Part shown: positions 36,287 through 46,753 of the stretch, piece by piece
Position numbering within the stretch: position 1 is the first letter of the stretch
How the letters are laid out: every line of letters begins with the position of its first letter
From: Shigella phage ESh36
Reading direction: 5' to 3' (one strand)
DNA length: 64,000 bases
Sequence record: ON528746
The notes under the pieces: generated by a model
Databases searched by the model: none
The model's input: the letters and a program-made list of their open reading frames with translations, nothing else
Told to the model about the DNA's origin: nothing
Position numbers and translations under genes: made by a program

Positions 36287-36760
36287 TTATTTGAATGATT
36301 TGACGTACTGAATAGAGCCTTTGCTATTCACGAAAGCGATTTTACCATTTTTGTTATACATGGTAGCAGTACGCTGATAACCATAAGTTTGTTTACCAGA
36401 TTGATAACCAACTAATGCGAAATTATCTTCACCCATTTTATTCTGCTTCGCGCGGATACGTTCATGACCATGTGCCATAAGAACCTTAGCGTCGCCAGTT
36501 GCAATGGATCTACGAGTTTTTTCATCTTCAACTGTATTAACAAAGTCGTCAAATGAATCAAATTTAGCGTGAGATTTATTATACAGTTTTCCATCTACTG
36601 CATAATTATATCCCTGTACATCCATCTCAACTTCTGTACCATCATCCAATACAGCAGTGATTTTTTGACCTTTTTTAAATTTCAAAAGATCAGTAAAAGA
36701 TTCAGCGATAATTTGAGAATTAATAGCTGCTTCAGTGATAAATTCTTGATATGTTTTCAT
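36287..36760 (-). CDS. Head internal protein (IP family) with capsid targeting sequence
   Basis: 157 aa; N-terminal MKTYQEFITEA leader typical of T4 internal proteins (cleaved after the Glu by the prohead protease). Confidence 0.6.
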   Translation of the reverse strand: MKTYQEFITEAAINSQIIAESFTDLLKFKKGQKITAVLDDGTEVEMDVQGYNYAVDGKLYNKSHAKFDSFDDFVNTVEDEKTRRSIATGDAKVLMAHGHERIRAKQNKMGEDNFALVGYQSGKQTYGYQRTATMYNKNGKIAFVNSKGSIQYVKSFK

Positions 36761-36769
36761 GTGTTTCCT

Positions 36770-37186
36770 TTAAATGTAAATAGTTTTACCGTAGTATTTA
36801 TACCAGTGTGGCTTCATTAAAATTTTTTCATCGAGTCGTTGTTGACTCAACTTAATAGCTGATTTGCATGGATTATAATCATTTTTCCATTCTGCTGAAA
36901 TATCGCTGATGTCAGGAACTTCAGTATCTTTTATACTGAACCCACGTTTTAAGCATTCCGTTATAATGTCTGATTGACGCTTTCGCAAAAATTCTAACTT
37001 ATCGTAAAAGAACGTAACATGACCAGAACCTAAAATAAACTCGGAAGATATTTTAAAATCTTTAACCCGTTTACCATTTGCCACATGTTTACGAACTATA
37101 CCAAAAACACGTGGCAATTCACGGTATTCTGCGATTAAATGTTGATCAGCAAGTTCAGATACTAAAGTCAAATTAATACGAGTCAT
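36770..37186 (-). CDS. denV: Endonuclease V (pyrimidine dimer DNA glycosylase)
   Basis: 138 aa; [17 protein letters not shown]...[11 protein letters not shown]...; matches T4 DenV. Confidence 0.9.
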
Positions 37187-37245: not shown

Positions 37246-37776
<531 letters not shown>

Positions 37777-43504: not shown

Positions 43505-44020
43505 TTAAAGCAAATTAAACATTTTAACTGTCGGCAAAACAATTTCTTCTTCGATATAAGCAAATTCTACATGTTCAACTACACGCAAGAAATCATATTC
43601 ATAGTATTCAGAAGCATGACCAAGAATATCAATGAGGCCTTCAGATATCTTATTACCATTCACAAAGAATAAGTCAAATACACGTTCTTCATCTTCTTCG
43701 GATTTATTACCAAGGTCAACTTCTATATCAAAAACTTTTTTAATGAATTCTGGATAAAGTTGGTCTGAGAACAGTCCTTCAACCAAATATTCATATATAA
43801 AAAGCTCCTGCTCGCTGAACAAACCATTACCACAATAACGGTCAGCTTTAGTGCTAGAATGACGACTCTTAAACTTCTTCAAGAGATATTTAAATTGCTG
43901 GAGCTCATGCTCTTCTACACCAAATAGTGTTTTGGTTTTATAGTTGTCACCATCATTTTCATAGGTAGTGACATCAATTACGTAGCCCTTAGGAATTGTG
44001 CTGCCTAAACGAATATACAT
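43505..44020 (-). CDS. Hypothetical acidic protein
   Basis: 171 aa ORF; first gene region upstream of the tRNA cluster. Confidence 0.45.
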   Translation of the reverse strand: MYIRLGSTIPKGYVIDVTTYENDGDNYKTKTLFGVEEHELQQFKYLLKKFKSRHSSTKADRYCGNGLFSEQELFIYEYLVEGLFSDQLYPEFIKKVFDIEVDLGNKSEEDEERVFDLFFVNGNKISEGLIDILGHASEYYEYDFLRVVEHVEFAYIEEEIVLPTVKMFNLL

Positions 44021-44316
44021 TTGCTCACCATATTAATGTAAGTATATTTAATACATTCAAGACCCAAAGGATTCTTGAAAATATCATATTCAAGAGGACC
44101 TTTTTCTGTTTCAATAAAGAAATCAAAATTTACTGTATTAAATTTGCGGTCTTCCTTTACTAATTTAACTTGAGAAGATGAACGGCCAATGTAAACCTTT
44201 TCAACTTCAAAATATGTTAAAATACCATAATCATCAATCAAGGATTTAGCTGCTTCTTGATCATATTTATATCCATTTTCAATGGATGATACTTTCGCAT
44301 AAAGAATCATTATCAA
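44005..44316 (-). CDS. Hypothetical protein
   Basis: 103 aa ORF; overlaps neighbours. Confidence 0.4.
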   Translation of the reverse strand: MIMILYAKVSSIENGYKYDQEAAKSLIDDYGILTYFEVEKVYIGRSSSQVKLVKEDRKFNTVNFDFFIETEKGPLEYDIFKNPLGLECIKYTYINMVSKCIFV

Positions 44317-44702
44317 CCTTCATCAACAATAGTGTGCGTATTGGCATTAACTATTTGCCACCAATCAAAGCGATTAGAACCATACATCGGTTTGTTTTCA
44401 TTTTCTTTGATAATGTCACGGAGTTCATCTTCGGTAGCGGCTTTCGCTATTAAATCAGCATATCCACCACGAGGATAATAATTATCACCTGCAAAAAGTA
44501 AAAAGTTTGGTTTAATGTTATTGAACTCTTCAAGAGTAATAACTTTTCCTGACGGTTGAACAATCTCTACATATTTATATCCCAATTTTTGAGCAGCATC
44601 TACTGCTTCAAGCAAAGTATCATGAGCCCATCCAATTTGACAACCTGGCTTTTCAGATGGATTCGCCTGATAATCCGCATACACTTTATACATTCTATTC
44701 AC
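44313..44702 (-). CDS. Hypothetical protein
   Basis: 129 aa ORF. Confidence 0.45.
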   Translation of the reverse strand: MNRMYKVYADYQANPSEKPGCQIGWAHDTLLEAVDAAQKLGYKYVEIVQPSGKVITLEEFNNIKPNFLLFAGDNYYPRGGYADLIAKAATEDELRDIIKENENKPMYGSNRFDWWQIVNANTHTIVDEG

Positions 44703-44880
44703 CTTTAGAAATTTTATCCATAACGATAGCGATTAAACCAATTAAAAATGCTACTACAAGTGAAAACACATTTTCTGCTGTAGTTAATAATCCACATATA
44801 AATCCAACAAACATTGAAAAACTAAAAGCAGAAGCAGAAATTGCAATAGCAACATTTCGAATTAATTCACAACGTTTCAT
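44695..44880 (-). CDS. Small membrane protein; start moved downstream of the promoter
   Basis: ATG at 44880 with GGAG SD gives 61 aa, mostly hydrophobic (…AISASAFSFSMFVGFICGLLT…VVAFLIGLIAIV). Confidence 0.45.
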   Translation of the reverse strand: MKRCELIRNVAIAISASAFSFSMFVGFICGLLTTAENVFSLVVAFLIGLIAIVMDKISKGE

Positions 44881-44907
44881 TTTTATTCTCCTCAGTAGTT
44901 GATAGGG

Positions 44908-44941
44908 TAATAGTATCACAACTAAAACCCTATGTAAACAA
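44908..44941 (-). promoter_or_regulatory. T4-type early promoter
   Basis: GTTTAC-18 bp-TACTAT. Confidence 0.6.
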
Positions 44942-44951
44942 CTTTGTGAAA

Positions 44952-45209
44952 TTATTTTAAATCTTCTAATCGTTTCTTCATCTTAGAACCATTTTTAGCA
45001 ATTTCTCCTGCATCGGAGCATAATGCTAAAAGCGCTTTAACTTTAGTTTGATCTCCTTTAAAAGACGAAGGATCGACTGCAGCAGCAAGTTCTTTAATAC
45101 GAGAGAAAAGACGCTCAGCTTCAGCTAAAGCCATTCCAAGCTTTACTTCCATACCGTGGGAAGATTCAATGATAGTAGTTTTTGTAGCAAACTCTTTGAA
45201 AGTTTTCAT
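44952..45209 (-). CDS. Head internal protein, IPI-position allele with capsid targeting sequence
   Basis: 85 aa; N-terminal MKTFKEFATKTTIIE leader; sits just upstream of 57B as T4 ipI does, but the mature part differs from remembered T4 IPI. Confidence 0.5.
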   Translation of the reverse strand: MKTFKEFATKTTIIESSHGMEVKLGMALAEAERLFSRIKELAAAVDPSSFKGDQTKVKALLALCSDAGEIAKNGSKMKKRLEDLK

Positions 45210-45237
45210 TTTATTTTCCTAATTAATTTTGATGAGA

Positions 45238-45271
45238 TAATAGTATCACTACCTCATCAGCATGTAAACAA
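45238..45271 (-). promoter_or_regulatory. T4-type early promoter (internal protein gene)
   Basis: GTTTAC-18 bp-TACTAT; ~30 nt upstream of the ATG. Confidence 0.6.
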
Positions 45272-45281
45272 CTTTGTGAAA

Positions 45282-45978
<697 letters not shown>

Positions 45979-45979
<1 letters not shown>

Positions 45980-46704
45980 TATAGTACCTTTAGTGTATTT
46001 TTAATTTTAGAAAAAAGTTCTTCAAGAGAACCATCGTTTGTAATTACTAAATCGCCATCACGAATTGGCAATCCAGCTTCTGTAATATGTGTATCATTGG
46101 ATTTTTGGCCAGGACGAACTACATGAATTACTGTAGCACCCATCGCCCTAGCCGCATCCATTTCATGATCTTGACGGGTATCAGGAACGATATAATAATC
46201 ATAACCTGAGTTAAATTTATCAAGATAATCTAAAGCAAATAATTTTACCCAGTACATGCGGTCGAAGTTATTAACAATCAAATCCGTACCTAGGGCTTGC
46301 ATCAGACGACGGACTGACCATTGATCTTCAATATTATTTATAACGTCAGCAATCTTATTAAATGCTACGAAAGTAACTGATTCTTTTCCTTCGTCATCAA
46401 AAACAAACACGCCTTTAATTGGGCTTTTACTATTAAGATAGCAAAATGCTTGTTCCATAATCGTAATTACTTCTAATTTAGTCAGATTTAAATTAGTCTC
46501 ACGATCATAATCAATTCCTTCAAACTCTTTACGAGTTAAGCAAGGATAATCATTGTTTGCTGCAAATACACCCCATGCATAAGCCAACGCATCTTTAATA
46601 GGACCAGCAAGTTGATATTTAGCTGCAGAATAATTATTCATGATAAAATCTGCAGTAGTATCTTTTCCACTACGCTTTACACCGCTTAAAAAGATTAGTT
46701 TCAT
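45979..46704 (-). CDS. 1: Deoxynucleoside monophosphate kinase gp1
   Basis: 241 aa from the ATG at 46704 (MKLIFLSGVKRSGKDTT...); P-loop; the ORF-track start is a 13-codon extension. Confidence 0.88.
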
Positions 46705-46753
46705 GTGTTTCTCCTCAAATTTAATTAAGATTATAACACACAAAACTGAAGCA

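Follow-up and report, generated by a model that had tools for sequence, protein, structure and literature searches.

The open reading frame (ORF) that follows 57B in the window (the whole 64-kb stretch of DNA analysed here) is almost certainly ip5, an already named and common member of the T-even internal-protein set. The explanation that best accounts for the observations overall is that ip5 is a swapped internal-protein gene whose product, once injected, probably inhibits a host defence. The ORF starts with ATG, spans 44952..45209 on the minus strand with the stop codon counted in, and encodes a complete product of 85 residues that reads MKTFKEFATKTTIIESSHGMEVKLGMALAEAERLFSRIKELAAAVDPSSFKGDQTKVKALLALCSDAGEIAKNGSKMKKRLEDLK.

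Setting, identity and distribution of ip5

Read along the minus strand, the region comprises gene 1 (dNMP kinase; 45979..46743), 57A (45737..45979; Pfam GP57, E 2.5e-47), 57B as the upstream neighbour of ip5 (45282..45737; Pfam PF23474 Acb1, E 2.6e-60, positioned as 57B of T4), ip5 itself, a trna.4 homologue of 61 residues as the downstream neighbour (44695..44880; phrog_1692, E 1.2e-34) and a trna.3 homologue (44313..44702). This is the order of T4, which has ipI in the slot of ip5, and it places ip5 in the 57B-trna.4 interval, one of the two internal-protein (IP) loci. Together with the ORF list, it confirms the initial annotation, which had described an 85-residue ORF with an MKTFKEF...IIE leader at the ipI position. 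A putative ribosome-binding site, AGGA (45217..45220, minus strand), was read from the sequence 7 nt 5' of the ip5 ATG and is the same in T4 before ipI. 57B is a clear member of the Acb1 family of anti-CBASS phosphodiesterases, and carries the label 'RNA ligase' or 'hypothetical protein' in PHROGs and many GenBank records. The true start of trna.4, which encodes a small and strongly hydrophobic product, is the ATG at 44880, aligned with trna.4 of T4, RB51 and T6; a mechanically called ORF of 74 residues with a GTG start (44695..44919, minus strand) runs into the promoter cassette described below, and phrog_1692 matches its residues 14-74. As an Rfam scan of 44000-46000 returned sub-threshold chance matches only, no RNA gene is hidden in that interval.

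The product of the ip5 coding sequence (44952..45209, minus strand; an 85-residue precursor plus stop) matches PHROG 3499, 'internal head protein', over its full length (E 8e-49, residues 1-85 on profile positions 1-85 of 85), and is 95-99% identical over all 85 residues to annotated Ip5 proteins, that of JB75 included (RB51, 95.3%; T2, 97.6%; T6, 98.8%). The RB51 record, with the order 57B-Ip5-tRNA.4, annotates its protein as 'Ip5; similar to Ip5 from T6, T2, RB15 and RB70 and RB69ORF127c', UniRef calls the RB70 and T2 proteins Ip5, and the JB75 and VR25 records label theirs in the same way. What had been taken for a differing variant at the ipI position is therefore the known Ip5, going by the annotation of RB51, RB70, JB75 and VR25. 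Pfam and NCBIfam were found to hold no family for it, the sole Pfam match, DUF7890 (E 0.074), lying below the cut-off. Ip5 was reportedly named in the T-even polymorphism study of Repoila, Tetart, Bouet and Krisch (EMBO J, 1994). The name as used here is taken from database annotations and from the wording 'ip4-10' in Silas et al. Elsewhere, the 1994 study of Repoila et al. is cited for 'at least 10' internal proteins (PMC12373910) and credited with 'more than 30 variants' (PMC2839356).

A tblastn search of 50,697 phage records located the Ip5 family in 496 records and at 509 places, so that some records have two matches. Identity is at least 80% in 268 records (T2, T6, RB3 and RB51 among them), 247 of which reach at least 95%, and lies below 60% in 228 records, with values of 47-54% among those listed. 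Since T4-type Ip1 occurs at 80% identity or more in about 280 records, Ip5 is approximately as common. Two Tequatrovirus phages, Shigella phages ESh16 and ESh34, are the only ones with an exact match over 401 nt. Two record labels look inconsistent with the Tequatrovirus-type genomes to which they are attached: OR584013.1 ('Pseudomonas phage PsgM02F') has a T4-like 57B-Ip5 locus that is 98% identical, and NC_041919.1 (Escherichia phage HP3) is filed under Rosemountvirus.

A second branch of the family, of the RB69ORF127c type, has a mature domain that is 47-54% identical, also belongs to PHROG 3499 and has its own capsid-targeting (CTS) leader, MKTYSEFLSESILNE. Three motifs (KLGxALxEAExL, ALLxxC and EIAKNGxxMKxRLE) are invariant in both branches, which share 37 invariant columns at about 48% identity. 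In RB69-type phages and VR25, the gene of the RB69ORF127c type lies between e and denV, which is the second IP locus; Tequatrovirus phages carry theirs downstream of 57B, and Gaprivervirus ECML-359 likewise has an 81%-identical ip5 at the 57B locus, behind ip9. In the compared loci, the Ip5-family places are L004 2501-2782, L007 1201-1482 and, for ECML-359, L006 1201-1443. In ECML-359, ip5 is followed (L006, 1500 onward) by an apparently unannotated CTS ORF, MKTYQEFINEAADAKVEFAY..., which resembles the JB75 protein labelled Ip6; Ip6 follows Ip5 in T6 and HP3, too. An exhaustive HMMER search of 1.84 billion representative proteins recovered three clusters only, all CTS-bearing and of the same type, and no distant cellular relatives; the family is confined to T4-like phages.

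ip5 is under purifying selection. Pairwise Nei-Gojobori dN/dS is 0.07-0.13 among close Tequatrovirus copies and ∼0.02-0.03 against the ECML-359 copy, where synonymous sites are near saturation; the pair that includes the window copy is saturated and yields no ratio. The low dN/dS, the strength of the PHROG match and the 496 phage records together argue that the ORF is not a chance frame.

Exchange of cassettes at the 57B-trna.4 locus

The initial annotation had judged the mature sequence to be unlike T4 IPI, and BLASTP of the mature parts and hhalign prove it right. T4 pre-IPI begins MKTFKEFTSTTTPVSTITE and continues with ATLTSEV..., and Ip5 begins MKTFKEFATKTTIIE and continues with SSHGM.... 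BLASTP of precursor against precursor aligns the N-terminus alone (15/47 identities), BLASTP of mature Ip5 against mature IPI gives no alignment at E<=100, and thus no homology of the mature domains, and a profile-profile comparison with hhalign covers residues 1-22 only. The alignment with T4 IPI, which the initial annotation had named as a possible refutation, matches the leader and nothing else. The candidate reading of the gene as T4 IPI with minor substitutions was rejected on the results of BLASTP, hhalign and the comparison of mature parts. The two proteins also fall into different PHROGs (4363 for T4 IPI, 3499 for Ip5). IPI*, the mature form of IPI, folds into two beta sheets flanked by N- and C-terminal helices (PMC3012670), whereas the AlphaFold2 model of Ip5 consists of three helices and has no strands, and a Foldseek search with that model against the PDB, which contains the IPI* structure 2JUB, did not match it. 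The term 'allele' used in the initial annotation therefore does not hold, the mature part being non-homologous by PHROG, by BLASTP and by predicted fold (all-alpha versus beta/alpha). The separate PHROG, the lack of a BLASTP alignment and the different predicted fold make this a cassette replacement in which the leader alone is shared, and ip5 and ipI are alternative cassettes with common regulatory DNA and a common leader.

The DNA itself marks the limits of this exchange. From the end of 57B through the promoter and ribosome-binding site to about codon 7 of ip5, the window is ∼98% identical to T4; the likeness fades within the leader and is gone over the mature region, until it sets in again sharply 5 nt past the ip5 stop, and these two places are the breakpoints between T4 and the window. 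The shared upstream DNA holds a predicted T4-type early promoter (45240..45268, minus strand; consensus scan), with GTTTACA as -35 element, a 17-nt spacer and a TG-extended TACTAT as -10 element. This region has two mismatches to that before T4 ipI, and the annotation of JB75 gives the same element as a promoter. The suggestion in the initial annotation that the gene has its own early promoter is in keeping with this result, TTTACA-17-TACTAT with an upstream TG being found at 45268..45240 and being promoter-like by consensus scan.

The promoter is part of a 69-nt direct repeat that was detected on either side of ip5 by a repeat search. The upstream copy (45229..45297) takes in the last codons of 57B, the promoter and a stem-loop, and the downstream copy (44899..44967) the last codons of ip5 and a promoter (44938..44910; promoter scan) and stem-loop that would serve trna.4. 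The copies are 83% identical, with a 33-nt exact core, TTTCACAAAGTTGTTTACAT, that occurs only twice in the window. The upstream stem-loop, GATGAGGTAGTG...TATTATCTCATC (45231..45258, minus strand), is predicted to form over the -10 element (91-nt RNA fold of -18 kcal/mol, z = -2.85), and its downstream counterpart, TAGGGT...ACCCTA (44902..44933, minus strand), is predicted to fold with similar parameters (91-nt RNA fold of -19.3 kcal/mol, z = -2.73). The stems differ between the cassettes (GATGAG/CTCATC versus TAGGGT/ACCCTA) and the pairing is kept in both. An early promoter-like site with a stem-loop is thus repeated on both sides of ip5, as would be looked for in an analogue of the promoter-early stem-loop (PeSL) elements. 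57B and Ip5 both end in ...DLK-stop, encoded by identical nucleotides, GATTTAAAATAA (44952..44967 and 45282..45297), which lengthens the repeat into both coding sequences. In a divergent Gaprivervirus, 57B and Ip5 also both end in DLK and yet are followed by different DNA; the common ending in the window may reflect either an old recombination in the repeat or coincidence.

The spacer between ip5 and trna.4 (44881..44951) is an exact chimera of the two spacers that flank Ip6 in T6 (L005, 1759-1834 and 2069-2126): its 5' part corresponds to the Ip5-Ip6 spacer and its 3' part to the Ip6-trna.4 spacer, with the crossover in the shared stretch GTGATAyTATTACCCTATC. The arrangement of the window and RB51 (Ip5 only) and that of T6, HP3 and JB75 (Ip5 and Ip6) are thus separated by one recombination within the cassette, and the crossover stretch marks the site at which the Ip6 cassette was gained or lost. 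Modular shuffling at the IP loci had already been proposed (PMC2839356; PMC4122927), and the shuffling of cassettes at ip5 reproduces this known picture and is not a new discovery.

Leader, predicted processing and fold

Codons 1-15 (45165..45209, minus strand) encode the leader, MKTFKEFATKTTIIE, which is assigned as capsid-targeting by homology to the leader of T4 IPI and ends in an I-x-E motif of the gp21 type. Residues 1-7, MKTFKEF, conform to the capsid-targeting pattern MKT(F/Y)(K/Q)EF and are identical to residues 1-7 of T4 IPI, and IIE at residues 13-15 conforms, as a motif only, to the L/I-x-E signature of the gp21 prohead protease. hhalign places IIE15 of Ip5 over ITE19 of T4 IPI (ITE17-19), and the 2JUB chain (IPI*), which covers precursor residues 20-95, starts just past ITE19. 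Moreover, SSHGMEVKLG directly follows the I-x-E motif in every Ip5 variant, even in ECML-359 with its short leader of 10 residues. T14I, which turns ITE into IIE, is the single window-specific residue change, common only to Shigella phages ESh16 and ESh34. Cleavage behind this motif would give a predicted mature form, Ip5* (44955..45164, minus strand), of 70 residues with a computed mass of 7.5 kDa and a computed pI of 9.2, for which AlphaFold2 predicts three helices. Two further L/I-x-E motifs, LAE at residues 28-30 and IKE at 38-40 (45090..45128, minus strand), lie within predicted helix 1 and are kept across the family (LVE and ISE in the RB69-type branch); they may be extra gp21 sites or simply part of a helix, and on their account the processed form of Ip5 is not certain.

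Each head holds ∼360 copies of internal proteins, which gp21 cleaves and which enter the host by injection (PMC9958956; PMC3012670). By this T4 precedent and by its leader, the Ip5 precursor is very probably packaged, processed by gp21 and injected. The MKTFKEF leader would carry the 85-residue precursor into the scaffolding core of the prohead, where the gp21 protease would cut after I-I-E15 to leave the basic three-helix Ip5* of 70 residues, and some hundreds of copies of Ip5* may then be packed with the DNA and injected together with it. Alternatively, Ip5 might never be packaged and be just an ordinary early protein of the cytoplasm, its leader being a relic of recombination with ipI. The early promoter is in line with such a protein, as is the fact that no TATAAATA late-promoter motif lies directly upstream, the nearest one on the same strand being at 46342 inside gene 1; T4 ipI, however, has the same upstream region and is packaged, and all branches of the family have kept the leader with its I-x-E, those at the second IP locus and those with a leader of another length among them, which argues that it is not a relic. 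We therefore consider an unpackaged Ip5 highly improbable and retain the packaged and injected form as the basis for what follows.

The AlphaFold2 model of Ip5, computed from an alignment of nine sequences, has a mean pLDDT of 83. Its helices span residues 17-44, 54-63 and 67-83, with block-mean pLDDT values of 88-95, and the leader is disordered (pLDDT ∼50). A fold search of PDB and BFVD with this model found no match beyond the protein's own family, and a search of PDB sequences with the family profile gave chance-level matches only, the best being ADAMTS5 (E 0.009). A further rival view is that Ip5 has no specific host target and is a basic filler or DNA counterion of the capsid interior, interchangeable with other internal proteins. 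Ip5* is as basic as IPI* (pI 9.2 and 9.0), assembly does not require internal proteins (PMC9958956) and the literature searched gave no phenotype or target for Ip5. A generic counterion would, however, hardly need a three-helix fold under strong purifying selection with 37 invariant positions; every internal protein examined in depth is a specific inhibitor (PMC12373910), and the swapping of non-homologous genes at the locus fits a host-specific function better than a common structural role. We thus regard a filler role as improbable, and favour the interpretation that Ip5 is an injected inhibitor.

The host target of Ip5 and comparison with known systems

Apart from the leader, Ip1, Ip2 and Ip3 have nothing in common, and the Type IV enzyme of the GmrSD type that is inhibited is a different one for each (PMC12373910). 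Since these proteins have just the leader in common and each blocks a distinct GmrSD, inhibition of a host defence is the likeliest function of Ip5 as well, and by analogy we hold a role as anti-defence inhibitor to be probable. In this scheme, Ip5* would bind and stoichiometrically block a host defence protein that attacks the incoming modified DNA. The prime suspect would be a subtype of the GmrSD family of Type IV restriction enzymes beyond those assayed, and we put forward a GmrSD-family target as a tentative assignment, somewhat short of an even chance. The assignment is limited by three points: (i) when Silas et al. (2025) assayed ip4-10, with ip5 equated by name, against further GmrSD variants that were active, none was reproducibly inhibited (PMC12373910); (ii) T2 and T6, both of which carry Ip5 by tblastn, are still restricted by GmrSD-ECOR21 and GmrSD-ECOR17 (PMC12373910); (iii) the two further L/I-x-E motifs within predicted helix 1 leave some doubt over the processed form.

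That an internal protein may act on a different host nuclease, as the initial annotation suggested for this gene, is the standing hypothesis of the field (PMC12373910, PMC3012670). For Ip5, the target may be a host immune factor outside the tested GmrSD subtypes and perhaps outside the GmrSD family, a possibility that we hold to be less likely than not and that draws on the negative GmrSD panel and on the presence of the Ip5 family in phages with glucosyl-hmC and with arabinosyl-hmC DNA; if true, the arsenal of T-even internal proteins reaches beyond Type IV restriction. In its stricter form, this explanation holds that Ip5 inhibits a defence other than GmrSD, such as a further nuclease that depends on modification, or some unrelated immune system that acts early. 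The negative ip4-10 panel speaks for it, as does the occurrence of Ip5 homologues both in Tequatrovirus, with glucosyl-hmC DNA, and in RB69-type phages, reported to have arabinosyl-hmC DNA (PMC6024577), which suggests a target that may be independent of any single sugar modification; in addition, the neighbouring 57B is itself an anti-CBASS enzyme, making the region a mixed anti-defence neighbourhood. Conversely, where the target of an internal protein is known, in three cases, it is an enzyme of the GmrSD type (PMC12373910), and the diversity of GmrSD is very large, only 15 groups having been sampled and 8 found active (PMC12373910). On balance we consider a target other than GmrSD rather unlikely, and a GmrSD-family enzyme remains our tentative first candidate.

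The remaining IP locus of the window was found to carry a second CTS-bearing ORF. It encodes Ip4 (36287..36760, minus strand; 157 residues, MKTYQEFITE...; phrog_3155, E 6e-102), whose counterpart is named Ip4 or IpIV in phages JK1 and PP01. The Ip4 gene lies just after denV (36770..37186), and the lysozyme gene e (37246..37740) directly abuts denV, from which it follows that ipII and ipIII of T4 are absent. A scan of the whole window, both IP loci included, for the leader motif detected no CTS-bearing ORF besides Ip4 and Ip5. The phage has Ip4 and Ip5 and lacks Ip1, Ip2 and Ip3, and for such a set the published T2 and T6 data predict sensitivity to each of the three GmrSD variants which Ip1, Ip2 and Ip3 neutralise; this is of use in predicting the host range of therapeutic T4-like phages. 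Non-homologous replacements of IPI at 57B-trna.4, already recognised as hyperplastic and as bearing recombination cassettes, have been known since 1994, and Ip5 is already named and present in ∼270 sequenced phages; the remaining interest of ip5 thus lies in its host target. As common as Ip1 and strongly conserved, Ip5 is a reasonable candidate for a targeted search for host partners.

Compared with T4 IPI, the inhibitor of GmrSD-CT596, Ip5 has the same locus, promoter, ribosome-binding site and I-x-E leader, a similar size and a basic pI, and presumably the same route of packaging and injection, and it differs in a mature part that has no detectable similarity, belongs to PHROG 3499 and not 4363 and is predicted to be all-alpha and not beta/alpha. 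Carriers of Ip5 that lack Ip1-3 have no protection against the assayed GmrSD variants (PMC12373910). The closest likeness is to Ip5 of T2, T6, RB15, RB51 and RB70, which is the same protein with the same position downstream of 57B, the same leader and the same promoter cassettes, although T6, HP3 and JB75 have both Ip5 and Ip6, whereas the window and RB51 are without an Ip6 gene after Ip5. The RB69ORF127c type (Mosigvirus and Gaprivervirus, annotated as ip5 in VR25) has a homologous mature domain with shared motifs, but sits at the e/denV locus, has a longer C-terminus (KYISGASEK versus DLK) and a different leader, which ends in L-N-E. The elements at the IP locus are T4 early promoters with weaker, AT-rich stems and in this differ from the PeSLs of RB49 and phi1, which have sigma70-like promoters and GGGG/CCCC stems (PMC2839356). 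They nevertheless resemble the PeSL cassettes (Arbiol et al. 2010, PMC2839356; Comeau et al. 2014, PMC4122927) in that a promoter and stem-loop are repeated beside a small accessory gene, and, as in PeSL systems, whole genes are exchanged between related phages by crossovers within the repeat.
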